The translations under genes and the position numbers were made by a program. From Vermamoeba vermiformis (lineage: Eukaryota), in assembly GCA_045837725.1 (NCBI GenBank), contig JBEWZL010000076.1, positions 1 through 64,000 on the forward strand: a stretch of 64,000 bases of DNA, given 5' to 3'. The notes under the pieces are model-generated. The model did not search any database. It was not told the DNA's origin and was given only the letters and a program-made list of their open reading frames with translations. Positions within the stretch are counted from its first letter, which is position 1; each line of letters opens with the position of its first letter. Below, in pieces: positions 1 to 62,885 of this stretch.

Positions 1-9
1 TTGCGTTGT

Positions 10-2300
10 ACTTACCTTTTGCGATAGACGAATTATATTAACTCCAGACGGATCGAGTCTCAATCCGCGCCTATTCGTGCAATCAGCTCCGTGAGCAAAT
101 CTGAGTTATAGAATTGTTAATAATTCATATATATAACGCGTTATACTTACCTTTGGAGCACTCGATGCGCTTCATTAAAAGTTGAATCGCTGCTGGATCG
201 CGGATTCGTAGCCCTCAAAGGTTTCTTCAAGGGTCAATTAGACCGTATCTGTAATTATAACGCGTTAGTAATACTGTATTAATATCGATCTATAGTATTG
301 ATATGGCGAACTTACCCTTCTATATAAATTTTTTATCGCATGAAGATCGCGATCTAGATCCGTTCTGGGTTTTTCTTAAGACTTAAATAATCAATATTAA
401 AACATCACATATTTATTGAATAACTATAGAAAAGCACTTACATGTCAAGAGAACTTGTCCTGTCACGGATCGAGTGTTCGAATCCACGTATCCGGTCTGC
501 GTCCGCTCCTTTTGAGTAATAACCTGTAAATTTATGATTACTAAAATATATTAACGATAAAATAACCAGTTATTTAACTTTGGTTCAAGCGCTGTGTTGC
601 AACGACGCTGAATATCGTTGGGCGCGTGTATAATATACACAGTGAACTAAATACTATTAATAATTCGACCCTTGTGGTCGATCTGATGCGAATCTAAGTT
701 CGCATCACTTCAAATCAAAATAACTCGCGCTGAACGCCGTTGTGGCCGTGGCGCGTAACTATAGCTGTTAATAAGCGATGAACAATAAATATAACGACCC
801 TTGTGGTCGATCTGTCAAAGTTTTTACTAAAAATAACGGCTCCAGATCTTTGTGATTCCCACCCGTAATTAAATTAATTAGCATTTATTATTATGTACAC
901 AATTTTATCTTTTCGCTCGTGGATGCGTTCTAAATGCAATAACAGTCAGATCTGCAACTTGTCCACTAAGTCGGTCTCGTGCTATCAAACTATAATAAAA
1001 AAGATATCAATATTATATATGATAGAGTTGTACGCTTTGAACTTACTTTCGGCGCAATTGATGCGCAGCGTTAGCAGATCGAGTGCCACGAGCGAGCCGA
1101 TCTCATCCTTTTAAATCCTAAATAAGAATAATTATTAATATTGGCGTTTATTTTAAATTTTTAAGCATTGTACTTACTTTCGACACAATCGATGCGTCAC
1201 TGAAGTTTCTGAGAGATCGGGATGTCGCGACCTGATCTCTGGCCCCCGCTCTGTGTAATCTCTTTGATGTAAAATTAGTATAAATAAGTTAATATATAAA
1301 CATATAAGAGATATCACTTACCTTTAAGGCAATCGATGCCCTACATTGATATTTTAGCGGATCGAGACGCGTTGGATCCCGATCTCGTAAATGTTCAACA
1401 GAAGTCTCCTTCGCCATTTCTATGGAGATAATGCGTTAGTGATGGATGGTCTCTATATGTATATGTACTTACCGGTGCATCACAAGCAATGTAATGGATC
1501 TAATAACATTCGAGAGGATCGCGTTCGAGATCCGTCCCGTGTAACTTTTAACGCCTAAATAAATAGCTTTAGAATATTAAATAGCAATAATATAATAAAT
1601 TTAAACTACTTACGCTTGAAGAATTAGCGGGGACTGAGCGATCGACTTCGCGAACGATCCGCACATCACGTCTGCGCAGACGACACTGAAATAACCTATA
1701 AACTAACGATTATTATATTGTATTGATAATATGATAAGCAATGATTTAAACTTTGCACGAGCACGAAGCTCGATCTAATTTGAAAAAATTTAACTTGATT
1801 TTTAAATGATTAATCGACGCATTGGAATGATTATTTTATCACTATTGAATATATTTAAATACTTACTGAATTATTTCGAGGCTCTGGGCGGATTCAATCT
1901 CGCCATCAAGGTACCGACCCCATCGGCGAGCAATAGTCATCGTTCCTGCACCGGGGCACGAACGAAAGGCACCAGTGTATAATAAAACGACATTGGTGGT
2001 CAGGATCTCGCGCATCGAAAGTAACTGGAACTTTCGATCGCGTTAAAAATTTGTGATCTCTATCTAAATTAAAAATTACGCGTTAGCATATTATATGTAG
2101 TATATTTTTATCGATATTCATTAAAAATCCGGATAAAATCCGAGCACTTGGCTCGATCCGGATCAGTAGAAAATTTAAAAATTGATTTTACGACAAAATA
2201 ATATTGTCCATGGTGGAAGTATATATATAAAAATCTTACCTTGAATTATCTCGGTCTCTGCACCGAGATTCGCACAAGTCTTGATCTCGCGCATTGTCTC
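10..2300 (-). ncRNA. Putative multi-exon non-coding transcript built of repeated ~70-100-nt hairpin exons (continues off the left edge; may begin as far right as ~4100)
   Basis: Minus-strand GTAAG(T) donors at + positions 15, 150, 315, 441, 1046, 1177, 1321, 1472, 1613, 1866 and 2239. Most pair with branch-like TAAC/TAAT plus YAG acceptors, e.g. intron 150->101 GTAAGT...TATTAAC...TCAG and intron 315->249. Exons share GATC...GATC stems and (+)CAATCGATGC-like motifs. The exon joins I tested hit stops. Confidence 0.55.
601..815. repeat. Bipartite hairpin repeat block 1 (ACGACGCTG or ACTCGCGCTGAAC hairpin + A-rich spacer + CGACC-CTTGT-GGTCG-ATCTG), 2 units
   Basis: CGACCCTTGTGGTCGATCTG at ~666 and ~795; perfect hairpin TGATGCGAA-TCTAAG-TTCGCATCA at 684-707. 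Confidence 0.9.
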
Positions 2301-2307
2301 GCGCTGT

Positions 2308-2690
2308 AACGACGCTGATTGTCGTTTGGTGCGTGTGCACTAACAATAAATTAACAATCTAAGTAACCAGATCGACCCTTGTGGCCGATCTGTTGCGAAT
2401 CTTGGATTGATACTGTCAATCCTCGAAATAACTCGCGCTGAACGGCCGTCGTGGCCGTGGCGCGCAACTATATGCTGTTAATAAGCGATGAACAATAAAT
2501 ATAACGACCTTTGTGGTCGTTCTGTTGAATTACTGATGCGAAATAGCCCGTGCGCCATTTTCGCATCAGCTCCGAACCTCGAAAGAACTCGCGCTGAACG
2601 GCTCTGATGCCGTGGCGCGTTACTGTCATCTGTAAATGTGCAATATAATACTAAATATTAAATAAACCGACCCTTGTGGTCGATCTGTAT
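2308..2690. repeat. Bipartite hairpin repeat block 2, 3 units
   Basis: CGACC(C/T)TTGTGG(T/C)CG at ~2373, ~2505 and ~2668; ACTCGCGCTGAACGG...GTGGCGCG at ~2431 and ~2587. Confidence 0.9.
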
Positions 2691-2759
2691 CAGTTGTTAA
2701 AAATAAAGTCCAAAAACTGATGCGTGCGATTTTGACTTTCCCTAAATAAGACATTTTAC

Positions 2760-3734
2760 GCTAAAACTCCAGCGGAGCCTAAATTTTGGCCAATATAGCT
2801 CAAATCCATCATAATATGTACAATATAATTTATAATACACCATAATATCATAACAATAAGATATTAGTGGTATTTTATGAGGTGTTGATCTGCAGCAGTA
2901 GATCTGGTTTTATTATTACATTACAAGGGTTTACTATGAAGTCACCATCACGGTGAACACTTTCTCCATCACGGAGATCATACTGCCATCGCGGCAGGAT
3001 AACACCATCACAGTGTAGTCAAAGCCATCACGGCTGTAGGTGCACCGGGTGGTGGTGTCTTTTGCCATCACAGCAATGTTATCACCATCACGGTGAGGTT
3101 GTGGCCATCACGGCAATATATATGTTGAATGAGTTTGATGCCATCACGGCAAGTTAATCGCCATCACAACGAAGTTAACGCCATCACGGCAAATTGATCA
3201 GATATAGATCCGCTGCTATCATCAAAATAATGATTCTACAAGTTTTGTAATAACCTAATATCACTGTGTGCACGTGCTTACATCATCATCAATCGCTGAA
3301 ATTTCGGCAGACACGGATCGTGCACGATCTATTTGAAATAATTATTTTCACTTCTAAATATATTAATTTCAAGTAAATATATCATATATATATTTATATT
3401 AAATTATTTAATGTTTCAGGCGATTTTTCAAACAAGTCTAAGTCAAATCTAAATCCAGCCAAATATTCAGCTTTGTTATATTACCGAATTTACCTCTCTA
3501 ATTACTTGTACTAATATATATGTATATAAATCGATGTTTTTGCTGGGCTGATGATGATACTATGGTGTTCTTGTGCAGATCTTGTGCAATCTGACAGATT
3601 CGCCAAAAACATATCTTCTAGTCGCCGGAAAGTTGTATAAACAGTACCATATTATGGTACTATACTCTAATATAATATATACTACTATAATTCTATATTA
3701 TTGTGCCTAAAGTAGGCTCCGCTGGAGTTTTAGC
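2760..3734. mobile_element. 975-bp segment bounded by perfect 22-bp inverted repeats (MITE-like or long-range stem)
   Basis: GCTAAAACTCCAGCGGAGCCTA at 2760-2781 is the exact reverse complement of TAGGCTCCGCTGGAGTTTTAGC at 3713-3734. No ORF inside and no clear target-site duplication. Confidence 0.5.
2942..3190. repeat. Array of 11 short stem-loops with conserved ATCAC (minus strand GTGAT) pentaloop, ~20-bp period
   Basis: tcacc-ATCAC-ggtga, tctcc-ATCAC-ggaga, ctgcc-ATCGC-ggcag, acacc-ATCAC-agtgt, agcc-ATCAC-ggct, ttgcc-ATCAC-agcaa, tcacc-ATCAC-ggtga, gcc-ATCAC-ggc, tgcc-ATCAC-ggca, cgcc-ATCAC-aacg, gcc-ATCAC-ggc. Confidence 0.92.
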
Positions 3735-3747
3735 ATAATTGATCTTA

Positions 3748-4010
3748 AATAACTCGCGCTGAAACGACGTTGGCGTCGTGGCACGTCACTAACAGGTGCT
3801 AATAATCAATACTGAAGAATAATTCGACCCTTGTGGTCGATCTGATGGCTTACTGAATCTGTATACGAAATAACCCGGCCATTTTTGCATCAGCTCAGAG
3901 CTGAAATAACTCGCGCTGAAACGGCTGTGATGCCGCCGCGTGTTTCTGTCAGCGTAAATGAGCAATACAGTACCAAAAAAATAAATAAACCGACTTGCGG
4001 TCGATCTGTT
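3748..4010. repeat. Bipartite hairpin repeat block 3, 2 units
   Basis: AATAACTCGCGCTGAAACG at ~3748 and ~3905; CGACCCTTGTGGTCGATCTG at ~3825; variant CGACTTGCGGTCGATCTG at ~3991. Confidence 0.9.
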
Positions 4011-4299
4011 TATTTGAAATCGATAACCCTTGCTTGCTGCTGTCAGCCAAACTAATAAATAATTGAGTTGTTATGCAATAAACAAATAAAGAGCATTAAC
4101 ATTATAAATAATTGACGGTTGTGCTCGATCTGTCCGCGAGAGAAAACTACAAGTAACGGTCACTGCCTGATTTGGTAAAATCGACATTCGTCGACCGCAC
4201 GTGAGCATCGACACTCGTCGACTGGTACACGTGTCTGCCAAAAATTGCCGTTCTGTGTTGGGAAATAACCTGGCACAGCCACAGAAAAAGTGCGTGCAC

Positions 4300-6220
4300 G
4301 CACAAAACTCACAAACACAACACCGTAACAATACAACCACAACCACGAGCTGGCCAGTAAGAATAATTTGCTAGTTTATTTATTGCTGGCTTCGTCACGA
4401 CGTGCTTGGTATTGCGCGACCCTGCACTAGTGCTACTAATTATGCTCTGCCCTGCAAGTGCAATAATCATTCGTGGTAAGTAGGCTTGATAGTATTTAAT
4501 TTATAAAATAGATTATTTTACAGTTATCTATTTATTAATTTTCTTTTCAGGTAAAGCCGATCAACAACGCACCTGTTGTTTTACGCGAAGAAATTGCCAC
4601 CTTCGCTGAGAATGTTACTGGTAAAATCTAGAATGTAAGTAATGGGCTGTTTATCAACCTGCATTTTTAATTACATTAAAACTAATTTCAATCTCAGATA
4701 CGGCAGATTTTGACGAGACAACGGGTCTGTCTCCTGGCATCGGATTGCTGCGTCTTTGAGCAGTACAGAAGTAATGGGGGATGCGAACACCGGTAAAATA
4801 AGTGGTAAGTGATATTTAATACTAGTTTATTTTTAAAAATCAAATGCGCGGCATCTCACCTTTTTTGTTCTCGCAGCTCTCCTGGCTCGAACGCGTGTGC
4901 ACTATTTTTCAACAACGTTTCACAGCAAAGGCAGCCTTGCCAATGTTTGAGTAAGTACTCTCTGAATTTAAATCGAGTTAACTAATCCGATCTTCAGTTC
5001 TTCCAACAGCTGCGTGGCACACCGTCCAGTTATTGGACGGTCCCTTCAGTGCATGGCTCGCACGGTCCAAGCCTTGCTTGGCTCAAACCGTCCAAATTCT
5101 GGACGCTTTTTTTAGCGTGGCTCGCACCGTTCCCTCTGCTCTCAGTGTGCCACCGTCCAGTTATTGGACGGTGCCCTCCGCGCCGTGCCTCAGCTCGACA
5201 CCGTCCGGTTATTGGACAGTGCCCTCTGCGCCGTGCCTCAGCTCGACACCGTCCTGTTATTGGACGGTCCCAGTGCATGGCTTAAACCGTCCAAGACTTG
5301 GACGCTTTATCGGACGATCCCTTCAGTGCGTGGCTCGCACCGTCCAAATTCTGGACGCTTTCTCAGCGTGGCTCGCACTGTCCCCTCTGCCCTCAGTGTG
5401 CCACCGTCCAGTTGTTGGACGGTTCCCTCTGAACCATGCCTTAGCTCGACACCGTCCAGTTATTGGACGGTCCCCTCTGTGCCGCACTCTCACGTGACTC
5501 CGTCCAGTTATTGGACGGTCCCTTCAGTGCATGGCTCGCACGGTCCAAGTCTTGCTTGGCTCAAACCGTCCAAAGTCTGGATGCTTTTTTTAGCGTGGCT
5601 CGCATGCCTCACTGCCACCGTCCAGTTATTGGACGGTTCCCTCTGCAGCTGCCTTTTGTGTGACATTCCCTCCGTGCTGTCCCTTCAGCGTGCCACCGTC
5701 CAGTTATTGGACGGTTCCCTCGGTGCGTGGCTCAAACCGTCCAAATCTTGGACGCTTTTTCAGCAAATGGCTGACCGTCCAAGTCTTGGACGCTTCATTG
5801 GTGCGTTGTTGACACCGACCAGTTATTGGACGCTTAATTGGACAATCTCTTCAGTGCGTGGCTCGCACCATCCAGTTATTGGACGGCCACTTCAGTGCAT
5901 GGCTTGCACCATCCAGTTATTGGACGGTTCCCTCTGTGGCTGCCTTCTGTGTGACATCCCCTCCGTGCCGTCCCTTCAGCGTGCCACCATCCAGTTATTG
6001 GACGGTTCCCTCGGTGCTGTGCCTCAGCTCAGTGTGGCTCACACCGTCCAGAACCTGGACGCTTGGCTGGTGCTGCATGGCTTGGTGAGTAGATTGCACC
6101 ATCCAAGACTTGGATGCTTTGTTGGTGGCTTGCACTGTCCAGGACCTGTGCACCTTCTTGGCTGGAGCTCACACTTTGTATGCCAAGGTCCTGGACAGTC
6201 AATTGTAAAATAAAGTTTAG
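4300..6220 (+). ncRNA. Putative spliced, polyadenylated non-coding transcript whose last exon is the palindrome array
   Basis: Canonical introns 4476-4550, 4635-4697, 4805-4876 and 4951-4997 (GTAAGT...branch-like site...CAG), possibly also 4357-4458. AATAAA at 6209-6214 directly after the array. The spliced frames I tested contain stops. Confidence 0.5.
5021..6200. repeat. Array of ~23 palindromic units (ACCGTCCA-GTTAT-TGGACGGT and CCGTCCAA-N4-TGGACGC) with repetitive spacers
   Basis: About 13 GTTAT-loop copies (5021, ~5152, ~5200, ~5247, ~5403, ~5451, ~5500, ~5617, ~5695, ~5814, ~5867, ~5908, ~5985) interleaved with about 10 AA(ATT/GAC/GTC/ATC)-type copies. Confidence 0.95.
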
Positions 6221-6253
6221 TTTTTACAAACAGCTCCTTTATTGGGTTTGCAA

Positions 6254-6438
6254 GGGGGTGTACAGCATGCTGTACAGGGGTGCGATGGGTGTACAGCATG
6301 CCGTACGGGGGTGCGAGGGGGCGTACAGCGTGCCGTACGGGGGTGCGAAGGGGTGTTCAGCGTGCCGTACAGGGGCATCAAGGGGTGTACAGCATGCTGT
6401 ACGGGGGTGCGAGTGGGTGTACAGTGTGCTGTACGGGG
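6254..6438. repeat. G-rich ~31-bp tandem repeat x6 containing palindrome GTACAGCATGCTGTAC
   Basis: Unit GGGGTGTACAGCATGCTGTAC(A/G)GGGGTGCGA; runs of G3-G5 give G-quadruplex potential. Confidence 0.95.
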
Positions 6439-6584
6439 AAAAAATCCTAGCCCCAGCCCCAAATCCTATAAAATATGACATTAAAAAAACAGCTATAGAA
6501 ACTTTGTAGCTACTTTTTACAATATTTTATTTTTAACCCTCTCACCCCCAAACCCTAAAGCTATATTAATCATCGCATTCAATC

Positions 6585-7500
6585 TGATTCTCATCATGGA
6601 CACGACACCAACATTTACGCGTGCAAAAAGATCATGCATTTGAAGCTGATTCTCATTTAAACCATGACGCCAAGATTAGCACGTGCAACTGGAAGCATAA
6701 AGAATGCAGTTGTAGCTCTTCTCTCTATAACAACGACGCCAATTCAACGCGCGTGCAATTAGAACGCACTTTTGATATCAATTACACTATACCCACGACG
6801 CTTGTTTTAAGCACGCGCACTGAGGATGAAACATGCTCAATCATTATGTTTCAGTGTATTTAAAGCACCCGTGTACCAATGAACAGGCATTGATTACCTC
6901 AACACTCTATTTCATTATAAGCACGACGCTAGCATTAATACACACGTAAATCATACATTTCTATTATAACCACGACGCTAACATTTAGCGTACACGTGAA
7001 ACAGGGATACTCATCATGTTTCAACAGATTTAAAGCATTCGTGTACCATTGAACTGACACTGACACCATCAACTCTGATTCTCATTATTACCACGACGCC
7101 CATGTTTACGCGCGCGAATAACACTTGATTCTCTTATTAACCACGACGCTCGCTTTCGATAAGCGTCCGTGAAGCAGACATTATGCTTCTATTCATTTAA
7201 AGCACGCGTTACCAGTGAACTTGCATTGATATCTCAACAATGAAATCTCATCTTTGATTCTCATTATAACCATGACGCTCACATAGAGCGTACGCGTAGA
7301 AACAGGACATTCTTCATGTTTCGACGTGTTTAAAGCACATGTGCGAGTAACTAGCATGGATTACGATACCAATGATGAAGCAGGACACCCTTCATGCTTC
7401 TATTCAATTAAAGGATCCATGTACCAGTTAACCATCATTGATTCCATCTTCAAAATGAAATTTCATTTTCATTTCTCCTCTTTTCTTCTTTCATTCTATT
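6585..7500. repeat. Degenerate repeat family (TTCTCATTATAACCACGACGCT...ACGCGTG) with a higher-order unit (CATGTTTCA...TTTAAAGCA...GTACCA)
   Basis: ACGACGC/ATGACGC-like core at ~6601, 6663, 6732, 6794, 6922, 6971, 7092, 7142 and 7271, mostly after TATAAC-like sequence; TTTAAAGCA at ~6859, 7029, 7196 and 7329. Confidence 0.8.
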
Positions 7501-7504
7501 ATGC

Positions 7505-7735
7505 AACGACGCTGATTGTCGCAGGGCGCGTGTTTACTATCAATAATAACAATAACAATAATAATAACTCGACCCTTGTGGTCGATCTGATGCAAATCTA
7601 AGTTCACATCTAATTTTCAATTCCACAGCCAAAATAGCTCGTGCTGAACATCTTCTGTTGCGTGACGAGTTACTTGCATATTGTAACTAGAATAAATAAA
7701 TAAGAAAAAATAATTCCTCACTTTGTGGTTGAGTT
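7505..7735. repeat. Bipartite hairpin repeat block 4, 2 units (second degenerate)
   Basis: AACGACGCTGATTGTCG at 7505; CGACCCTTGTGGTCGATCTGATGCAAATCTAAGTTCACATC at 7570, nearly identical to 666-706; CTCACTTTGTGGTTGAG at ~7717. Confidence 0.85.
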
Positions 7736-8300
7736 TATTACATCATTTCTTTGCAAAAACAGATTTACTCCGATCTCCGCGAGAGACCGTTCGTTCTGTT
7801 TGATAAACCCTGTGCACGAGTGTTAACTGTCAAAATTAATTACACCACAAGGCGACTCGTGGTCAAAATCCCGCAAATCAACAGCAAAAAAAAGGTTATT
7901 CGTTAATGTCCTGCGGTGACTTTCAAAAATTTCAAATCAGATTTGGGCGGGAGGGTAAATTATCAGCAACGCGAGCAGCTACAGCAATGCCGTCTCGTGC
8001 GCTGCGACTAACATAATTACAGAGAAATTGTGGTAGCTACCTTTGCGCAAGATAAACGATTTAATTTTGATTTGGATCAGCTGAAGTAAAATAATTGGTG
8101 ACCATTGCCAGTGCAAACACGAGCACTGTTACATATGAAACTGTCTTTCGTGCTTGTTTGGTGCGTTTTGATGACAAAAATAACGCATGATTGTAACTAC
8201 GAGTCTCGCTCGTGTCGTCACTAGTTACGAGTTATGGCTCCAATAGATCACGCCTGCCCACTAAATTGTAAGTTATTTTGATTGTTTTTTGTTGTAAGTT

Positions 8301-8770
8301 CATGACCAGTGCGGTCACGAAGTTTTTCAAGTTTGAATTTTTTTACATCGTCTCCCTGTGGAGACGACCTCAAGGGACTTTAATTTTTCTTAGTTCGTGA
8401 CCAGTGCGGTCACGAAGTGGGACTTAGTTTTTTTGTTACATCGGCCTTGCAGGACTTTAATTTTTTTTAACATCGTCTCCCTGTGGAGACGACCTCTGTA
8501 GGACTTAGTTTTTTTAGACATCGTCTCCTCGTGGAGACGACCTCTATCGGACTTAGTTTTTTCAGACATCATCTCCCCGTGGAGACGACCTCCAATGACG
8601 TGACATCAATTTTCTTAGCTCGTGACCACTGTGGTCACGAAGTTTTAAACTTTGGTTTTTTTACATCGTCTCCCTGTGGAGACAACCTTGAAAGACTTAA
8701 ATTTACATCATTTCCTGCTAGAGACAACTGTAAAGGACTTTAATTTCAGTTGTGACCATTGTGGTCATAG
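8301..8770. repeat. Mixed hairpin array: CGTCTCC-CTGT-GGAGACG (x5) and GTGACC-A(G/C/T)TG(C/T)-GGTCAC (x4) separated by T-tracts
   Basis: CGTCTCC-type at 8349, 8474, 8522, ~8570 and 8667; GTGACC-type at ~8302, 8397, 8622 and 8752. Confidence 0.9.
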
Positions 8771-8894
8771 TTTTGCCCTTACCAGTACAGTTGTTGTTTT
8801 ATTCTAACTTGTTATATTGTAAAATGAATAAACTCTTTCAACATTTAATCTCTCTGGTGTGTAATTACTCTTGTCAGCCCTCAACTCTAATTAA

Positions 8895-9185
8895 CTCTTG
8901 GCGACTCTAGTTAGTGCTCGGCTAGTCTTGTTAGTGCTCGGTGACTCTCATTAGTGCTTGGCGACTCTCGCTAGTGCTCGGCAACTCTCGTTAGCGCTCG
9001 GCGACTCCCATTAGCGCTTGGCGACTCCCATTAGTGTGCAGCGACTCTCGTTAGCACTTGGTGACTTGTTAGCGCTCAGCAACTCTCGCTACTCAGCGAC
9101 TCCTGTTAGCTCGCGGTGACTCTCGTTAGCACTCGGCGACTCTCGTTAGTGCTCAGCAACTCTCGTTAGCACTCTACAACTCTTG
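8895..9185. repeat. 20-bp tandem minisatellite, consensus GGCGACTCTCGTTAG(C/T)GCTC, ~14 copies
   Basis: Directly visible 20-nt periodicity. Confidence 0.95.
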
Positions 9186-10033
9186 CTCACACTTGTGCAA
9201 TTGCTCAATGTTGAACTCTTGGTTGAAAAACTGCCAGAAAAGTTGACTTTACGAAACTTTTTGGATAATTTTTAGGGCTAGCCCTGTTTGGCCAAGCCCT
9301 GTAGTATATATGAATATATTAAACCAAATCTTTTGTCAGGATTAGAAATCCTCCCAAAAAATCTCAAGGGAGGATTTTACTGGTAGGCATTTTTCTCAGT
9401 TCAGTAGTATCAAGTATTAAAATTATTTATATACTAATGACCAGCAATGTTTATTCTATAATATCAATAGTTTTGACACTAATTGGCAAGTGTTTTAATT
9501 TTTATCCAACTGCCAAATATGGCAATGCAGGATCAAAGAATAAAAACCTTTAAAGTTAGGAATTCTTTAATTTATTGTATTCTGTTGAGAGTAGGCCTCA
9601 CTACCATTTGTATCATATTGTTATTCATTTCCTGAGATCCTAAACACAAAAATTTTCACCTTATTTAGTTACCTATGCATCAGATATCTATAAACAGACT
9701 GCTTTATGCATTGGCAATGTGATTGATTATTGGCTTTTGTTGGAGTACATTCTTAGAACTTTCTCATCCCAAATCTGCACCCAAACCTCTCAAAAAGTTG
9801 GTAACATATCAATACTTATCCTTTTGCTGAACATTTAGGAGAGTCTTAAACCTTTTTGTACCAAATCCAAAGCCTTAATCACTGGTTAAAACTCTAATGT
9901 ATCAAACAGATAGCTTTCAATGAAAGCAAGGTGATTATTAAACTCTGCTGGAAGTGGAAATCTTGCAGGCCAATGCAACACTGACAGACAACCAATCAAG
10001 GATCTGATGTAACAAGCAAATACAGACTTTTAT

Positions 10034-12153: not shown

Positions 12154-13336
12154 TTATTGTTTCGAAGGTTTGCGGCCGAAATGGAACGCCATCGGGGTGA
12201 AAATCTTCAATTTGCCGCCGAGATAAAGACCTTCTTGACCTCGCAACAGCATTCTTTGCACGCCTACGGTGCCCTTAGGAGCCAATCCGATTTTTTCGGC
12301 AATCGACAGTCCGACATCCAGAACCTTCTGACCAACTGGAGTCATTTGCCAATTGCTCATGGTGTATTTTGGCGTTAAGGGATCTTCCCAAGGAACCTGG
12401 GACTCTTCAGCGATATCTCGGACTTCCACGTCAAAAAATCCTGCTTCTTTCATTGCCACCGCTACGTCGTTAATGTGCGCAATGTCGGGCAATCCGGATC
12501 CTTCTTCGATAGCCTTCTTAACGTACTTGTGATGCGCATTGCTTGGCTCGTACTAACGTGCATATTAGAGCTGCGAAGAGTGTAAAAAAAAGACCAGTGA
12601 CGAACTTACCTTCTTAGTAAAAGTCCATTCGTACCCACAGAACACACCACCAGGCTTCAGCACTCGAAAAGCTTCAGAATAGACTCCAAGCTTACTAGGT
12701 GCATGAGCTGTAGCCTCGACTTCGTAGACAATATCGAAAGTATTGTCTTCGAACGGCATCTTCATAAAATCACCCTAGAAATTGTAAGCAAGCTGGTAAC
12801 TTTGCGAAGTGCGAATCGCTCTTACTTCGACAACAGTAAGGAGATGAGAAAGCCCTGCTTTTTCGTTGAGCTCCCTGGCTCGCTTGACTTGATAAGCATT
12901 CAAATTTAGGCCTGTTATACTCGCACCTACAAATAGGTTAGCTTGGACCACCATTGCAAACGAACGTAGACTTACCAGTAAATTTGGCGATGTTTCGCAT
13001 CGGACCTCCAATGCCGCATCCAACATCAAGCACTTTCATGCCTTCCTTCATGTGCGCTCGGAGGGCCAAATACAACTCGTGGCGTTTCAATGCATCGCCG
13101 TATGCTTCGCCCCTGAATTGCTTGGCAAAATGAAAGTGCTCGCCCCAAGCCTTCTCGTAGAAGTCAGTCGCAAGATCGTAGTAATTAACGACGACATCTT
13201 GGTAGTTTTTGTTGCGCTCGTCTGTCGTGTGCTTCTGGTCGTCATGAAGATCGCGATATTTGGTCACTGCATCGGCGACATTAGCGTGTTGTTTCTGATT
13301 ACCGTAGCTGCTTGGAACGGAGACTAATTTGGCCAT
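12154..13336 (-). CDS. SMT1: Sterol 24-C-methyltransferase (SAM-dependent), 4 exons
   Basis: [54 protein letters not shown] and the C-terminal KIFTPM motifs. Confidence 0.95.
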
Positions 13337-13762
13337 TTGAGTCTGTTGACAGAATAAGATTAGTGGTGATTGTCCAGCGAAGCTGAAGCGCAATTAAAGC
13401 TGAGTTTCATCGGGGTATTTGTATCGGTTGCGGTGGTGGTCAGAGTCTGACCAAGCTGTTCCGCATAGCTCCCCAGTACTTCGCTCTTGTGCGAGGGAAC
13501 TATGAGGGACTATGCGGATTTTATCTTTGTTACGGGCCTTACGGACTACCAGAACAATTTCATTGGAGTAGCTGAGCCACTTCATCCATTAGTATCCGAG
13601 AGCGGCACCCTCTGTAGCCAAAAAGTAGCTAGAGCCATCGTGTTGATAATGTCGCGACGTCAAATCAAGCGGTTATGTCATCTCTCCGCTACAACGAATA
13701 CTTCCGGAAACAAACAAATGCAAGTCACGTAATAAAGCGCAAAATATTTACAAACCGTAAGG

Positions 13763-16999: not shown

Positions 17000-17511
17000 T
17001 GCTGCTATTCCACAACAATAAGATCACGATCGATGGCCAGTTTGCGTGAGTTGCGTTTGCGTTCGTATACTTTAATTACAGTGACTGTTGTTTTGTATTA
17101 TACCAAGGACCTTCGTGTTTTTAACAGTGAAAACAAAAAATATCGAAAACACGAAAGAGGGACAAATTTCTATCGGTCCGATTTCAGAAACGAAGCGCAA
17201 TACGTTCACAAGTATATATGCAACATAAATATTAACATTTTTGTATTTGTGTATGGTGTCGATACGAACGCGAGTAATTGGCAATTTCAAGGAAGACTCA
17301 GCTGGATTTCACGCGCAGAAAAATGCGGTGCAGAAATTACAATCGCAAAATCCTCTCCGTTCATTTTTATTTCAAAAAAGACAATAATTTGAACTACCAC
17401 GAATCATGATTGAAATGCAATTTAGTTGAAGGTAAAGCTTGGCGAATCTACTTTATTTCGTGCTCAAGTACTCATTAACAATTGTTAATAATACGGATTA
17501 ATTTAGCAACC

Positions 17512-20500
17512 ATGGGCGAATATATAAAAGAAGACGAAGAAAATGATTGGCATCTGCTTGCGCAAGTTGGCGGATGGTATTGGATGGTGTCAGAAAATAT
17601 TTTCAGATGCACGGAACAAGCTGGAAGAATATATGACTTACAAGCGCCTGATTTGAGCATAACTAAATTCGCTGATTATTGCGTTCCGAAAGACAGAGAA
17701 GTGTTCAGTGAATTTGTTGAGCGGATCATTACCTTCAATGCGCGAGCCGGTCCTCTTAACAAGTCGCAAACCGATGACCACACGTCAATATTTATCAACG
17801 ACGATTCTTCATTCGAGTTTGAATACCGAATTCAATTAGGATCGAAAATAAAATGGATTCATTGCCGAGGAATAATCGAAGTAGTTGACGCCGAAACGAA
17901 GAGGAAAGCCACTTTAGTATCAAACAATGTCGTAGTCACACGCGTAAAAGCCTCAATTCAAGACATTTCCAAAGTGAAACCAAATCTGGATGAAGAGATC
18001 AAACGCAAAAATGAAGAATTGCGCCAAAGTGAAGAAGATTTTCAAGTGCTGGTTGAAGCCATGCCTCAAATGGTTTGGTCAACGACTGTAGAAGGTCGTG
18101 CCAACTACTTCAATAGCAGATGGCACGAATACTGCGGAACTACTTTTGATCAGACTCGAGGCTTTGGCTGGATCATGTCTATACATCCCGACGACGTAGA
18201 GAGCACGCTAAAAGTTTGGAACTATTCGGTTAAGACAGGTGCGTAGATGTGTTTTTGACCTTTTTTGGGCAATGGCTCACCAAATTGCAAAGCCGAATTT
18301 ACAAGCCAAAATTCAAACTGAAATTAATTGCAATCATCTCGGCGGTTAGATTGATACTAATTTCAAGGAATAAATTTTCTTAATACCCGTTTTCATGTTA
18401 AATCAATAAAAACGTACACGCCTAAAAATTTCGCTTTGTAGGCGAGGTTTTTGACTTCAAACATCGCCTAAGGAGGGCCAAAGACGGCCAGTATCGATGG
18501 CACTTAGTGCGTGGAATACCTGTGCGTGGGCCTGATGGAAATATTAAGAAATGGCTCGGTACGTCAACTGACATCCACGATCAGGTATGGAGCCCTTGAC
18601 TAGCCCCAATAGCTTAGCAAATTAATTAATTTAAATCACAGCACGAAGCGGAGGAAAAGGCCAGAGCCTCCGAGCTGTATCTCAGTGGAATCATTCAGCA
18701 CTTTCCCGTTTTGGTAATCGTTCTGAATCGCAACGGTGTATTCACCCTTGCCGACGGCCATGGCTTATCCGTACTTGGCTATGATTCGTCATCATTCCTT
18801 GGAAAGTCCGCCGTTGAAGTAATGTCTTCTCTCGGCAAGCCAGAATATATTGAGTAAGTGATCTTGTTGCAATCAATGAAAATGAACTAACCTTTTGGTA
18901 GATATTTTGAAAGAGGTCTGCGAGGAGAACAATTATCGGTGGAAATGGAGTTTAACAATCACATCCTCGATTGCCACTTTGCCCCATTCAATTTTGATCA
19001 GTCACCGGACAACTCAGGCCTAGTAATTGTTGGCAAAGATATCACCATTAGAAAAGAGGCAGCAAGATTGGCAATTAGTGAGGCTAGTGCACGCGAAGCC
19101 GCAAGGTTAAAAAGCGAATTTTTAGCAACAATGAGCCACGAGATTCGCACACCTCTAAACGGGATTATCGGTACGTGGAAGTAGCATATATTTGACCCGT
19201 TATTGGGTTTCATGATTCAGTTTCGCATTACGTTAGATTGCCAAACCAAAAATTACCATATAACGACTCAACTAATTCTCCGAACACAGGCATGTCAGAA
19301 TTGCTGTCCGACACTACGCTATCCGACGAACAGCGCCGTTATTTAGATATCATTCAAACGAGCAGCTCCAATCTCTTGATGTTAGTGAACGACATTTTAG
19401 ATCTGTCGAAAATGGATGCTGGAAAAGTCGAGCTGGAGAAGACCGAATTTACGATACGCCAGTTTGTTAACAGACAGCTAGATATATTTTCAATTAGTCT
19501 CAAGAACAAATCGCTCAAGCTCAATATAGAGATTGATGAAAAAATCGACCACACAATTTTCGAAGGTGACGAGGGTCGTATTGGTCAAATATTAGTCAAC
19601 CTCATCTCCAACGCGATCAAATTCACGCCACCAAATGGAGAGATATCGTTGAGCGTTCTGCAAGCTTTCAAAAGACGTTTGCCTGTGTCGAATGAAAGCA
19701 CGCCAGTCTCGTCACCCAAGGCAGGTGTGAAAACTGGAGGCTCTCAAGAAATGGAGTCTTTGTCCGAAGCCTCACGAGATATGACCGGCCCCATGGACGT
19801 CATGTTCGTCGTCACCGATTCAGGCATTGGAATTCCTTTGGAGGCCCAGCGCAAGCTTTTCCAACCGTTCATTCAGGCAAACAACTCAACAAGGCGCAAG
19901 TACGGCGGTACTGGTCTCGGCTTGTCTATTTGCAAGAAATTGGTGAAGCTTATGCGCGGTGAAATTGGCGTGGAGAGTGAAGACAACAAAGGCGCCACAT
20001 TCTGGTTCACTATTCCGCTGCTTCCAATGTCGCCTTGCAACTCGCCCGCTACTGACACGCGAGACCGTTCTTTCAGTGAAAGCAGCGCAAGGGTAAGTGC
20101 ACCACTCTGGTTTTTTTTACTTACTGACTTGCTGTACTTCAGAGCAAACTGACGTCCTCGTCGCATCAACCACTACTCGATTTGTTTGAAATGCGCAAGA
20201 AGTTCATCAAGTCATTCTCGTTCACTCAGAGATCTCTCGTCAATCGCAAAGTTATTTCAAAGCCACGCATCTTAGTCGTTGAAGATCATCCAGTTAATCA
20301 AGCTCTCATGGTAGCGACCCTGCGTAAGCTAGGTTGTGAAGTGGAAGTCGCCAATGATGGACAAGAAGCTGTAGATGCCTGGACTGCAGACGACAGTACG
20401 TTTGATCTGGTATTCATGGACTGCTACATGCCCGGTCTCGACGGTTACACGGCTACAAGAATCATTCGGGAGAAAGAAATTAACAACAACTACGGTCGAA

Positions 20501-20691
20501 CATCATTTTCAAAGCTCACGGGCTCAGGCTGCGACCACATTCCGATCATTGCCGTGACTGCCAATGCTTTGAGCGGAGATCGCGAGAAGTGCTTTGAGGC
20601 AGGCATGAGCGACTACTTGCCCAAGCCTATTACAAAGAACTCCATCATTAGCATCATGAAGAAGTGGCTGCCCAACGCGACTATTGATTAG
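17512..20691 (+). CDS. Hybrid sensor histidine kinase (PAS/PAC - HisKA - HATPase - receiver)
   Basis: [12 protein letters not shown]...IHPDD; H-box [22 protein letters not shown]-box [15 protein letters not shown]1 DSGIG; G2 GGTGLGLSI; receiver VVEDHPVN...FMDCYMP...YLPKP. Confidence 0.96.
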
Positions 20692-54052: not shown

Positions 54053-56608
54053 ATGAGTCATCGTTATTACAACCGAGTACCACGCACGCGTGAGTTCCCA
54101 GTCAAGTGGTGGCAAGCTGCTTTGATCGTGGCTGGCGGTGTTGGCGCTATTGCCGCGATTGGCTTCTTAACTGGCGGCAATCAAGCCGAGAAAAAAACAA
54201 AGAAACCTTCGCAGAAACCAAAGCCTAAACAACAAGAAGGTATGTAGAACAAGATCCAGATCTTCATTCAAAAAAGCTGCCGTTATTTTTATTTGACCGA
54301 TTATAATTTGTGGATAGTATGCCATTATTAATTGGGCGCTTTAGGACGGCTAATAATATTTTCTGAATTTAATGAACAATTATTTTAATTTTATTATTAT
54401 TTTAATTCAGCCTCTTCCTATGATCTATTTGCAACATTGCTCCATCAAAGCAAGCAAGCTAAAGCAGGTCAGTCAACTATACTACACTATTAATACCCCT
54501 CGCGTCATCACGTGACTGACGTTTTTTGGATTCGATCGCATCCAGCTGGTGACTTCAAATACGCTGAAGAATACGCGATGAAAGCTTATGAATATGCTAA
54601 GACTACTCTCGGCGAGAAGTCAGAAATAGTAGGCTTGGTATTGTTCATGTTGTACGACATTTACAGCTCGCAACACAATCTTGAACGCGCTGAATGGGCT
54701 TTGTTGCAGTACGTAACGGATCTAGGTTAATAATAGGACCTTAGGAATATATCGTAGTAATATTAATATAACAGTATCTCATGTATTCAATAATCCGTAA
54801 TCCTATTTTTGCTCGAACTATTTTTATTGAACGAAAATGCAGATCTATAACCACAAATAAGCAAAATAAGCCTGTATAGAATATATTATATATTTATGCG
54901 CATTAGTATCTAATACACTCGCTAATTGCTGTCTATGCAGAGCTATTTCAGTGTTGAAGCTGCATCAAAACACAAAAGAGACCTACGCCTTCTCATTGCG
55001 CAATCTGGCTGATATTTACACCATTCAAGTACGTATTAGCATATACTTATATATAGTGATTAATTAATAATGAAACGAAGCTCGTGTAACGGATCCGAAT
55101 TTTAATCGGTTTCAGGATCTCGGTCCAAAAATACTTTATATGGCTAAGAATTAATACTAATGCTTATACTCATATATAGGAACGATATAAAGAAGCAGAG
55201 CCGTTATCTGAAGAGGCCTCGTCCATCATCGAGCTGATCCACGAACACGAACCAGAGCACGAGAATATTGGCATGGCCTTAGCTTCGCTAGGAAACATTA
55301 AAGCTAATTTGGGCAAATATCAAGAGGTATATTTAGCGAACAGTAGCAATATAATAGCGAATATTAGTATTATTTTCTGCGGTAATTAATGTTGAAATTG
55401 GATGCAGGCTGAAAAAGCATTTAAACGAGCCTTGGCTATTTCAAAGAAGAGATTCGGTTACAACAATATGATCACTATTCAATGTATATTAAAGTACGGC
55501 CTAATGCTGCTCGATGTTGGTAAGTCAAAAGCAAATCTAGTTAAAAATGTTCCGAGGCTGATCCGAATCTGGCTTACAGGTCGTGTCGAAGAATCAGAAA
55601 AGATCTTTAAGGATACCATTACTATCATGGAGAAGGAAACTGAAGGTACTGCTATATTATAAGCTCGTGTAGTATTGTTAACTAACGTTACAAAATTCAA
55701 TAGCAAATCCAGATCTGCCGAAACAAAACACAATGCCGTTCTTGCGTCATTTAGCCGATCTATATATTGAAACTGGCAACTTTGCACAAGCTGAAGCTGT
55801 CTTGCTCAAGTAAGTCACAAATTAACCCTACATCCATCGTTGGCGCTTAGATCTCGCAAACAAATTGTCAATTTATTCATTTTACCTTATATACTAATAT
55901 ACTCATGCATATTATTAGGTTTAAAGAGGTCGCTAAGCACACTGGATTCGAACAACATGCGCATCTGTGTCTCGAAACTTTGTACTGGCAAACAGGCCGC
56001 GAAGAAGATGCGATGAACGAGCGAAATCAAATGAAGAACTTATTGAAGGACAATAGCAAGGCTTTGCCTATGACCTCGTCGAAATACTTGCTCTCAAAGT
56101 AAGCCACATCCGGTACCTCGATCGTGCCCAAATCTAACTTCAGTATTCGAATAGGGCTGCCACGCTCGAAGCCTCGTCCACTAAGCCTAATGTCTATCAT
56201 ATGAAACTGCTGATTAAGCGCGCTGTTGGCACTAAGAAGTCAAATGGTCAATTTGGCCGCGAACTCAAATTGCAACCCGGATCTGTGCTTGAATTCCACT
56301 TTGATAACCCCGATAAGCGTAAGTAGATCATATATGATATCATTTATACGATTCTAAGCTAACTTCTCGCACCAGCCTCTGAACCGCTGATCACATCCGT
56401 CGAAGTCAGTGACACTGATCAAGAAACGATTGAAGTCACCAGTGAAGCGGTGCACGGCGTTAAATTGCACGAATTTTATGAAGTGCGCGTGTATATTTAC
56501 AACAATAGGGAACGAGAGACCAAGCTCGCCGTGCACCATCAACTCGTCCGCGCTGAAGACTCGGATGTGGACAAGGAACGAAAAATTGTACCGCGATTCG
56601 TGGTGTAG
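54053..56608 (+). CDS. Membrane-anchored TPR-repeat protein (kinesin-light-chain-like TPRs), multi-exon
   Basis: N-terminal TM; TPR peptides LRNLADIY...YKEAEPL and ALASLGNIKANLGKYQEAEKAFKRALAISKKRFG. Confidence 0.8.
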
Positions 56609-59979: not shown

Positions 59980-62885
59980 TTAGTGTTGGGGAGTGGCACC
60001 CATACCAGCACCGCCGAGCAAACCATTGGCAGTGTTGAACAAGTTGATGGGTGAGTTGCCGTCGGTGATCATGTAGCCTTGCAAGCCCAAAGATTGGAGC
60101 ATCTTGACTTGCATTTCAGGGCCGGCACGGGCGATGGCAGAAATGGTGTTCTTGCCAATAGCACCGATCAAAGACTTGAACTTGGCAGACTCGATGGTAG
60201 AGAGATCCTTGGCCTTGGAAATCTCGAGCTCGTTGATGGCCTTTTGGTGTTCAATCTCGGCTTCTTGTTCCTTAGTGCTGATTTCAAGATCGGCTTCGGA
60301 CTTGATCTTGACAGCTTCGGCGTGCAAGCGAGCTTGGAGCACAGCAGCCTCACCTTCAATTTGTTGGGCTTCAGCGCGAGCCTTGGCTTCAGCGGTGGCT
60401 TGACCAGTGGACTCGACGGCAGCTGATTGAGCTTGCAATTGCAAGAGGTCCTTACGGGCCTTTTCGGCTTCAGCCTCGTCAGTGATCTTTTGACGTTCCA
60501 AACGACCACGAGCCTCTTGTTCACGTCGCTCTGCCTCGTGTCTGGCAGCGGCTTCTTGAGACTTGGTGGTAATCTCAATAGCCAATTGGACGGAGATTTG
60601 CAAGGCGTCACGAGTGCGTTGATCGACAGGCTCGACGGATTGAATATCGATGTTGTCGATGACCAAGTTGTTGGCAGGGAAGTGGAAACGGTTCTTGATC
60701 TTTCCGTTATCATCAGTGCCAAAGACGGCAGCGCGGATGATCTTAGCAGAGTTCTTGTGGAAGTTATCGAAGGACTCTTGGGCGACAGCACCTCTGACGC
60801 GAGAGGCGATAGCCTTGCAAGCATCACCAACAAAGTCGGGGACTTGGAACAACTTGACGGCCTCTTCTTGGTCGGTCTTGTTGGGGACTTCGAAGTGCCA
60901 GTTGTAGCTCAACTTGAGGGACAAACGAGCGTGATCGGCAGTTTCGACGATGACGAAGTCAGTCATGAAGTCAGGACCCAATTGGAGAGCAATGGACTTG
61001 ATGACGTGAGGGCGCTTGGGCTTGTCACCAGACAAGGACAAGATGGTGAAGTGCTCATCAGGACCCAACATAACCAATTCGGGACCATAGACAACACGTG
61101 ATTGCTTGAGCTTGTAGTCGTAGATTTGAACGGCGGTGTTGTGAGGTGCACGGAAGCTAACGACGCGAGTCTTATCGCGGCCAGAGGGGCCAGAAGGCTT
61201 GTCACCTTCACGGACACCAGAGGCACCGCGGATGATCAAGTCCTCAACGACAGAGGTGAGTTCCTTCTCCCAAAGTTCTTCTTCGGGCAACAACATGTAG
61301 CTGCGACCAGTAACCATGCGAACACGACCGGTCTTGATGTCTCTGACGTAGATACCTTCGTTTTCGTCGAGAGGGATTGAGCGTCTCTTCTCAACAACCT
61401 CAACTTCAACTGAAGGAACGTAGTCGCAAGGACCGTAGATCATCCAGCGGTCACCAGGCTTTCTAAGAACGGCTTCCTTTTCAGTGAGGTCCTTGAAGGC
61501 TTCACGAGCGCGGAGCAAGAGAGCCTCTTCGGCGTCCAAGACGTGAATGGTTTGAATGCCAGCTTCCAAACGCTCTCCGGGTTGCAAGAAGAAAGAGATG
61601 GGACCCTTTCGCAAAACTCTTTTACCCATTTGAGGCTTGCCGTCTTGGCCAACAGGATCCAAAACAACGCAGTATTGTCTGTTGGTCAAAGTGGTGATAG
61701 TGACTTCTCCGATGAGCTTCTCGTTAACGTCGGGGATGTGTGTTTCAGTGTGAGCCAAAGTAACCAACCATTCCTCTCCGGCCTTGCGGGTAGCACCGAA
61801 GGCATCGACGAAAGTGCGGAGAGCTTGGAGGTGAAGAGCCTTCTTGTCGGTCAAGACGTAAGCAGAGACGGTTTCAACGACTTCTTCTTCGACTTGAGGA
61901 ATGAAGGCACCAGGAGTCTTAACCAAGTATTCATCACCAGCCTTTCTTGTGACTTTAGCGGTGGGATCGGGGAACTCCTTCTTGGCACGAAGTCTGAGAG
62001 CCTGGTTGGGCTTAATGACGATGGCGCGAACGATTTCGACGACTTGGACTTCAACTCTAGGAGTGTAGGTACCTAAATTTAAAAAAAGACTTAGATATTT
62101 TGTGGGATTTGGATTTTCAAACGGTTTCCAAGAAAAGTTGCAGAATTGAATTAAAGCCATAATATGATAAGAAATAATACTTACCAGGTCCTTGGAACAA
62201 CCATTCATCTCCAGCAACTCTATCGACCTTGCCGTCCTTAAAATCTCGGATGGCTCTCAATTTAAGAGCTGTGTTGGGAGCAACAACTTGCAAGGGAGAA
62301 ACTTTGCCAAACAAGGTTTCACCAGGGAAGAGAGGGAAAGGCTCTTGTTCGAAGCGAATTTCCTCATCTCCGTGGCGAATCTTGACTTGGCCAACTGAAT
62401 CTGTAACTTGACGACCATCCTTATCTCTGTTTAATATATTTGAATTAATTAAGCTGTCCAAGAAGATATTTAATTGACGGTGATGGTCTTTGATTAACTT
62501 ATTTCGAGGAAGTTGAATTCAAGAAATTGATTTAAGGTCGTTGGAAAACGCTTATCAAAAGACCAACGCATTGTAGAAATCAGCACGATTTTACTATGAT
62601 AAAATTTACTAAGCGTAAAACGTTACCTGAGCACGGGGTTTTGAATAATGCAGTAGTGTCTGGGAGGGATGATAATCATAGCTTCAGGACCACCAACAAC
62701 CTTCTCGTGATCAGCACGAGTGAACGTGCGAGGACCAACAACGACTCTATTAAAACGAGTTAGCTATTTTCTGTAATTATCAAAATAAAAACCGTATCTA
62801 GTCTTTACCTAGTAACGTTGGAGTTGTTATCTAAAACGTGAATGTAGTGGAAGGGCTTGATTCTAATAACAGAGTCACCGTCCAT
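59980..62885 (-). CDS. MVP: Major vault protein, 4 exons
   Basis: [83 protein letters not shown]. Confidence 0.99.

Follow-up and report, generated by a model that had tools for sequence, protein, structure and literature searches.

Structured hairpin units at the head of a subtelomeric, telomere-directed intron array in Vermamoeba vermiformis

Introduction

As described in the cited parts of the literature, lncRNA-TARE, a long non-coding RNA (lncRNA) of Plasmodium falciparum, is telomere-directed, arises at 22 of 28 chromosome ends and is rich in the bipartite palindromic motif SPE2 (PMC7374410, PMC3218844), a DNA site bound by PfSIP2 (PMC3218844, PMC7374410). In the present study, we analysed a window of 64,000 nt of Vermamoeba vermiformis DNA, the start of contig JBEWZL010000076.1 (C76) of assembly GCA_045837725.1 (43.3 Mb, 309 contigs), in which units of two hairpins are reiterated upstream of a series of short introns. 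This module resembles lncRNA-TARE in having homologous loci at chromosome ends, in being non-coding and telomere-directed, and in carrying a repeated bipartite palindromic motif; it differs in its tens of ~59-nt introns and its covarying head, as neither a many-exon structure nor covarying hairpins are reported for lncRNA-TARE in the cited parts of these papers. By analogy, the amoeba module might work like lncRNA-TARE without being part of its family, the two organisms belonging to different supergroups with no homology expected.

Other described systems share single features with the module. Subtelomeric, apparently bidirectional, non-coding transcription, as outlined for TERRA, subTERRA and ARRET, is a point of likeness (PMC7374410), whereas the amoeba arrays that were followed stop short of the TTAGGG tract by 1-2.5 kb or more, or end within minisatellites. 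The Schizosaccharomyces pombe cryptic-intron transcripts that are routed to RNA interference also hold intron-like elements in repeat-derived non-coding RNA, in the part of that report concerned with them (PMC13473130). Among amoebozoans, the multicopy, structured, non-coding Class I RNAs of dictyostelids carry a short conserved motif, as the units do; the cited part of the source describes them as 42-65 nt long, with an end-joining stem, a T-run terminator and a DUSE that lies ~60 nt upstream, and reports none outside Dictyostelia (10.1101/2020.04.05.026054). The amoeba units differ from them in being ~100 nt long with two separate hairpins.

Known subtelomeric lncRNAs are mostly loosely defined repeat transcripts; here, a promoter-like core, an ordered covarying head and strictly spaced short introns are found together. 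The subtelomeric module is real and apparently undescribed: the literature outside supplements and subscription papers yielded no description of the element, and no paper on the chromosome ends of this water-system amoeba was found in it. With moderate confidence, we propose that the units are the reiterated, structured 5' head of a subtelomeric, telomere-directed, many-exon lncRNA acting at chromosome ends.

Results and discussion

First, the units were located at chromosome ends with a common polarity. Their core 20-mer, CGACCCTTGTGGTCGATCTG, is matched 7 times in the window at up to 3 mismatches (666, 795, 2373, 2505, 2668, 3825 and 7570; shuffles, 0/100), and exact copies number 80 genome-wide. 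On contigs of at least 60 kb, the window's own contig excluded, 46 of 51 exact copies face the nearer contig end (downstream of the CAGATCG strand), 37 of these 51 lie within 20 kb of that end, and 22 of 25 contig-strand groups agree on polarity toward it. TTAGGG arrays were observed downstream of units on C8, C164, C177 and C260, all four contigs seen with telomere arrays. Because the copies face the ends and TTAGGG arrays follow them, the element is subtelomeric and, on the window's minus strand, directed toward the telomere; the family is polarised, and many chromosome ends carry homologous loci. Because C260 has heads at both ends, we did not retain a centromeric reading. For this assembly, the unit motif is a practical chromosome-end marker.

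Second, the units have a constant anatomy and a nearly fixed order. Read toward the telomere, on the window's minus strand, each consists of hairpin H2, an AT-rich spacer and hairpin H1. H2 (CGACC-ACAAG-GGTCG) is nearly invariant in stem and loop; the spacer is 77% AT, with a median length of 39-48 nt; H1 has an outer CGCGC stem, an invariant CAG within an asymmetric internal loop, and an inner hairpin that differs by class. A third hairpin (H3) often links adjacent units. A pattern search of window positions 1-9000 and 55 fetched loci gave 157 units (A 52, B 38, C 46, D 14, unclassed 7), of which 143 distinct units (A 50, B 36, C 44, D 13) are the base for most per-unit counts below. A covariance model built from 107 units and run on the window and fetched loci gave 173 matches in 53 loci. 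After the conserved core described below, the class order is B-D-B-A-C or a sub-run of it (blocks: AC 15, BAC 10, DBAC 6, BDBAC 3). In the window, the model recovers 8 strong units (56-98 bits), two weak ones and one chance-level match at 54840. The head features of the window are as follows.

585..685, minus strand: head unit of class C, 3' arm recombined (covariance model, 56.8 bits)
686..717, minus strand: linker between units A and C, with short hairpin H3 (sequence, H3 pair counts)
718..814, minus strand: head unit of class A (covariance model, 94.1 bits)
2292..2392, minus strand: head unit of class C (covariance model, 79.3 bits)
2426..2524, minus strand: head unit of class A, AAC/GTT compensatory subtype of H2 (covariance model, 98.2 bits)
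2582..2687, minus strand: head unit of class B (covariance model, 89.3 bits)
2749..3745, unstranded: MITE-like (miniature inverted-repeat transposable element) insertion with terminal inverted repeats (TIRs), splitting units D and B (6-bp target duplication TAAATA at 2743-2748 and 3746-3751)
3747..3844, minus strand: head unit of class D (covariance model, 98.2 bits)
3904..4008, minus strand: head unit, B-like, with shortened H2 (covariance model, 60.1 bits)
4057..4132, minus strand: degenerate first unit, H2-like plus spacer (covariance model, 15.4 bits)
7492..7589, minus strand: head unit of class C, truncated by the 6580-7500 repeat (covariance model, 56.1 bits)
7632..7736, minus strand: degenerate head unit (covariance model, 17.6 bits, E 0.17)

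An earlier note on this DNA, made from its letters, had described nine units in four blocks of a dispersed family. The motifs lie where it placed them, and its inner hairpins and minus-strand spacer strings are confirmed by the sequence. Its count of nine holds if the degenerate unit at 7632-7736 is included, the strong units being eight. The division into four blocks is not retained: since the insertion between D and B is flanked by a target duplication, 3747-4008 and 2292-2687 are one head broken by a 997-bp TIR element. Nor is the family dispersed, given the end-facing polarity above. The inserted element has a second genome copy at C302:63240-63991, 98% identical over the matched parts and with its own TGGATA duplication; two genome copies were found, and the element carries an internal CCATCACGG repeat run. 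A second subtelomeric repeat, window 6580-7500 (~1890-2447 of locus L011), has 18 genome matches, and on C8 it breaks a class C unit at the internal loop; TTGCA flanks it on either side, which looks like site-specific insertion.

Third, the head is followed by an intron array. In 35 of 43 copies, the class C unit is directly followed by a canonical AG|GTRR donor. In the window, the array is represented by three features.

1..560, minus strand: distal part of an array, cut by the contig start (donors near 10, 145, 310 and 436)
1030..2291, minus strand: array after class C (donors near 2239, 1866, 1613, 1472, 1321, 1177 and 1046)
1614..1695, minus strand: array exon with an RNA-covered homologue (read match 1628-1660)

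Across 12 hand-picked arrays (59.2 kb), GC content, GATC and donors are periodic, with peaks at 139 and 289 bp (a ~140-bp period). GTAAG occurs at 4.14/kb versus 0.42/kb for its reverse complement CTTAC (control, 1.24 and 1.11), and GATC at 11.8 versus 5.1/kb. A link of the GATC period to 6mA or nucleosomes is conceivable. Among 280 candidate exons, 119 form 10 families, the median exon being 84 nt and the median intron 59 nt, and a heuristic parse counted 27 introns in L037 and 30 in L051. Exon 1614-1695 has 22 homologues, each with GTAAG at its end; the intron that follows measures 59 nt in 18 of 21. Stops and frame-shifting indels occur in 10 of 10 exon families, exon lengths vary modulo 3 and no frame stays open across any family; a protein-coding reading of both arrays was ruled out by these stops and indels. 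Three arrays were followed as far as they go (L019, L051 and L065); they contain no long open reading frame (ORF) and run into minisatellite or telomere-associated DNA. Judged by these features, the downstream series is a genuine non-coding intron array with conserved splice sites. Within 1030-2291, the non-coding exons have central GATC motifs, and H2-like hairpins lie both in the second exon and within two long introns (window 1990-2010, 2140-2165 and 1755-1780). These hairpins are conserved in the metagenome locus L091 described below and consist of a near-invariant GACCACCAATGGTCG in the second exon and of GATCGAGC-N5-GCTCG in the middle of the two long introns.

The position of the units at the head of this array bears on the earlier note's suggestion of a splicing context, which is borne out insofar as the units precede genuine introns of the same ~140-bp period. 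A stronger version would hold that each spacer is itself a weak intron, rarely spliced or stalling the spliceosome because H2 locks up its GUCG donor. GT is present at AAGG|GT in 136 of 143 distinct units, a YAG lies ~4 nt before H1 in 42/48 class A, 27/35 class B and 13/13 class D units, the units match the true array in period and strand, and the silencing by cryptic introns in S. pombe offers a precedent, as far as the cited part of that report goes (PMC13473130). However, the would-be donor has neither +3A nor +5G, and of 48 array donors anchored by an exon-end motif, 43 are GTAAG and none is GTCG. The spacers are also shorter (median 39-48 nt) than the array introns, a YAG is present in only 3 of the 42 class C spacers, and the S. 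pombe cryptic introns are described in that part as canonical at their splice sites, in contrast to the GTCG of the head (PMC13473130). Moreover, the GT and the acceptor G are both stem positions as well; since the H2 stem needs the GT, its conservation is explained without splicing. We therefore regard spacers as weak introns as quite unlikely. An elaboration, which we likewise hold to be quite unlikely, is that the head units would be structure-gated decoy introns: the GUCG donor locked up in H2, together with an acceptor next to H1, would detain the spliceosome at the 5' end of a lncRNA of up to ~30 exons that arises at most chromosome ends, coupling splicing to silencing or telomere control. 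If true, decoy introns would make up an RNA device specific to chromosome ends, for which the literature searched describes no counterpart.

Fourth, pairing within the units is conserved. On alignment A1 (107 of the 143 distinct units), double changes are observed in 8 of 16 pairs (shuffles 3.4; reached in 1 of 500), with a covariation score of 0.144 versus 0.100, the shuffle control ignoring the relatedness of copies. The covarying, conserved structure that the earlier note had seen is thus upheld, while its drawing on the plus strand is not, as the pairing evidence favours the minus, telomere-directed strand. On that strand, G•U cells outnumber A•C cells by 248 to 73 over all distinct units, a difference that stems from frequent columns (UG36/CG12/UA1 in A; CG31/UG10/UA3 in C; GU18/AU11/GC3 in B; UA98/AU17 in H2). 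The folding z of a B-A-C block is -8.4 on the telomere-directed strand versus -5.7 on the opposite strand, and the minimum free energy (MFE) of single units prefers the former in 33/50 class A, 28/44 class C and 10/13 class D units. These folding and pair counts give fair, though not decisive, support for pairing as a single strand on the telomere-directed strand.

The same palindromes might instead act as DNA, that is, as arrays of sites (CGAC-N7-GTCG, CGG..CCG) with AT-rich spacers for a dimeric factor beside the subtelomeric promoter, comparable to SPE2 and its factor PfSIP2, the hairpins being a by-product. This would suit the near invariance of both stem and loop in H2, the outward-facing H2-like motifs on both sides of the core, and the half-sites and 7-nt spacing that H2 and the class C inner stem have in common; the downstream exons also retain palindromic GATC/CGCG words, with the 139-bp period, more than they retain folds. 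It fits less well with the common G•U columns, which all lie on one strand, and with the compensatory changes, which alter the sequence that a factor would read. The inner stems of classes A to D differ in sequence and spacing yet retain pairing, and the conserved H1 internal loop is asymmetric. A role as DNA sites is therefore, in our view, unlikely. The motif ACCACA might be a RUNX site; a Runt search returned no match, controls included.

Fifth, the head adjoins a conserved core, on whose other side an outward-facing H2-like motif and a second spliced unit follow.

4153..4276, unstranded: conserved bidirectional promoter-like core (17 aligned copies)
4330..5000, plus strand: centromere-directed spliced unit, apparently non-coding (introns 4476-4550, 4635-4697, 4805-4876 and 4951-4997)

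The core contains a GTGCCAGG..CC hairpin, CACGTG, two TCGAC..GTCG palindromes and GG[A/C]AGTGACCGTTAC; its exact GGAAGTGACCGTT occurs 21 times in the genome. Of its 17 copies among the fetched loci, 14 have an H2 no more than 60 nt away, and we regard it as a putative bidirectional promoter. At C258:16500-18200 (L029), two oppositely oriented heads lie ~0.6 kb apart around one core.

Herein, we propose the following sequence of events for the lncRNA reading. RNA polymerase II would start at the bidirectional core and transcribe toward the telomere, with the capped RNA start predicted within ~50 nt of GGAAGTGACCGTTAC. The nascent RNA would fold one to five units, each of H2, a U-rich spacer and H1. 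These head units would stay unspliced and might serve as docking sites for an RNA-binding protein, through the invariant ACAAG-type loop, the single-stranded U-rich tract and the invariant CAG internal loop. The RNA would then be spliced via up to ~30 short introns into a lncRNA of ~84-nt exons. The least certain step is a role in chromatin or telomere upkeep, by analogy with TERRA- or TARE-type RNAs. Location, polarity, unit order, conserved pairing and the conserved splice sites of a non-coding array are observed, while we infer that the head is transcribed, bound by protein and functional. If expressed as predicted, the module would be a tractable case, in a common water-system amoeba, for asking why cells densely splice non-coding RNA and in what way RNA structure and splicing operate at chromosome ends.

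Each unit might alternatively be a separate small RNA gene, for example for a spliced-leader RNA or a polymerase III RNA. In spliced-leader RNAs, the donor lies in stem-loop I and the Sm site downstream. The units resemble them in their tandem ~100-nt copies and in a G|GT inside the first, 5' hairpin, and an Sm-like AT4-6GR follows H1 in 10/50 class A and 12/36 class B units. However, this motif is found after H1 in only 23 of 143 units and in 0 of 44 class C units. T5 terminators are rare on both strands (after H1 in 7/143), a DUSE-like motif upstream of units occurs in 0/143, and the C box RUGAUGA of box C/D small nucleolar RNAs occurs in 1/143 on either strand. The would-be leader followed by a different next base has only 2 genomic matches, both within subtelomeric arrays. 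Unlike spliced-leader RNAs, for which Sm site and structure are named as checks in the cited part of one report (PMC7346339), the units have no consistent Sm site, a non-consensus donor and no leader-bearing gene copies in the genome. Rfam 15, which the earlier note had proposed to consult, gave no family at gathering threshold in the window, the best weak match over a unit being isrF (16.8 versus 40 bits), so that no known family was matched; a search for tRNA and tmRNA found none. The discrete small non-coding RNA family considered in that note is disfavoured by the lack of a consistent T5 on either strand, of a DUSE-like motif and of nearly any C box, and also by class C running into a canonical donor in most copies. 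We give separate small RNA genes very little credence.

Sixth, the module was found beyond this genome. A gapped pattern gave 55 metagenome matches, of which one, L091, is a true module comprising H2, an H1 of class C, the first donor and exons of the same series. Over long matches it reaches 72-73% at best in the host genome, whereas the window copy has paralogues at 85-90%, so that L091 is probably from a separate lineage. The other 54 matches were rejected (spacer GC median 0.61), among them L097, which scored 34.8 bits but is GC-rich and has no AT spacer. The exact 20-mer had no metagenome match and a single viral match, in a coding context and judged to be chance; the gapped pattern had no viral match.

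The module is thus kept across copies and lineages at ~70% identity, which bears on a further possibility, namely a functionless, non-autonomous mobile or recombination-driven subtelomeric repeat whose structure and splice sites are relics or copying aids. Modules are indeed tandemly repeated, truncated, recombined and hit by insertions, and a few lie away from contig ends. Nevertheless, splice sites, intron length and stems are retained at that identity and in what is probably a separate lineage, and the module showed neither terminal repeats nor a target duplication, nor an associated enzyme ORF among the ORFs listed, which were not family-scanned. A functionless repeat is accordingly very unlikely.

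RNA reads were considered for the lncRNA reading. The runs X4-X6 carry the same species label and are mostly less than 95% alike even on a sterol methyltransferase control gene; a sequencing-run search listed no RNA run as holder. In X5, 15 and 18 reads match 1628-1660 and then diverge, their flanks resembling paralogous exon sequence. L091 has the same exon-end 12-mer, ACTTTCGCCAGC, with GTAAGT coming next; the X5 reads, by contrast, go on with letters like those of the next exon. Over 21 paralogues, the score of the spliced join is higher than that of the unspliced one in 17, equal in 2 and lower in 2. These matches suggest that a relative expresses the array and splices it.

Several observations weigh against the proposed lncRNA. 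The RNA runs come from a related, distant strain, with a depth over 1-9000 of at most 1.4 and zero in most bins, and at this near-zero coverage no splice joint was listed over 1-9000 in X4-X6. The junction comparison is one 30-letter consensus with small score gaps (means 19.5 versus 16.4), and the matching reads cover an array exon, not a head unit. With respect to structure, the A1 units were selected by eye and, in helix 3, those of class A are not in register; counted by distinct pair types, G•U versus A•C is only 38 versus 28 (p 0.27); and among the 36 class B units only 17 have an MFE that prefers the telomere-directed strand. The copies are paralogues related to one another, and template switching in DNA can repair palindromes. 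With respect to polarity, the contig-strand groups C11, C221 and one of C258 point away from the nearer end.

Other features of the chromosome ends were also observed. L019 (2400-4500) and L065 (2040-4100) share a telomere-associated block with an internal short TTAGGG run, and this block, on C177 and C50, sits between array and telomere. Window 6440-6560 holds degenerate telomere-like repeats (GGGCTGGGGCTAGG, TTTAGGGTTTGGGG, minus strand) that resemble the DNA just inside the C177 telomere and are possibly an old healed end. Minisatellites lie at 5000-6100, 6250-6440, 8300-8750 and 8860-9200, and comparable arrays adjoin the module on other contigs; three of those in the window are built on small palindromes (CCGTCCA..TGGACGG; GTACAGCATGCTGTAC; CGTCTCC..GGAGACG). 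Long ORFs are found near chromosome ends (L027 6020-10000, L063 350-2741 and L039 4849-5871), one of them, of 1327 aa, being retroelement-like by eye. Ordinary genes of the window lie at 12154-13393, 17479-20691 and 59980-62518; inspection by eye suggests a sterol methyltransferase and also a hybrid histidine kinase at the first two positions, and the third encodes a major vault protein that is 97% identical to a cluster including a Vermamoeba vermiformis EukProt entry.

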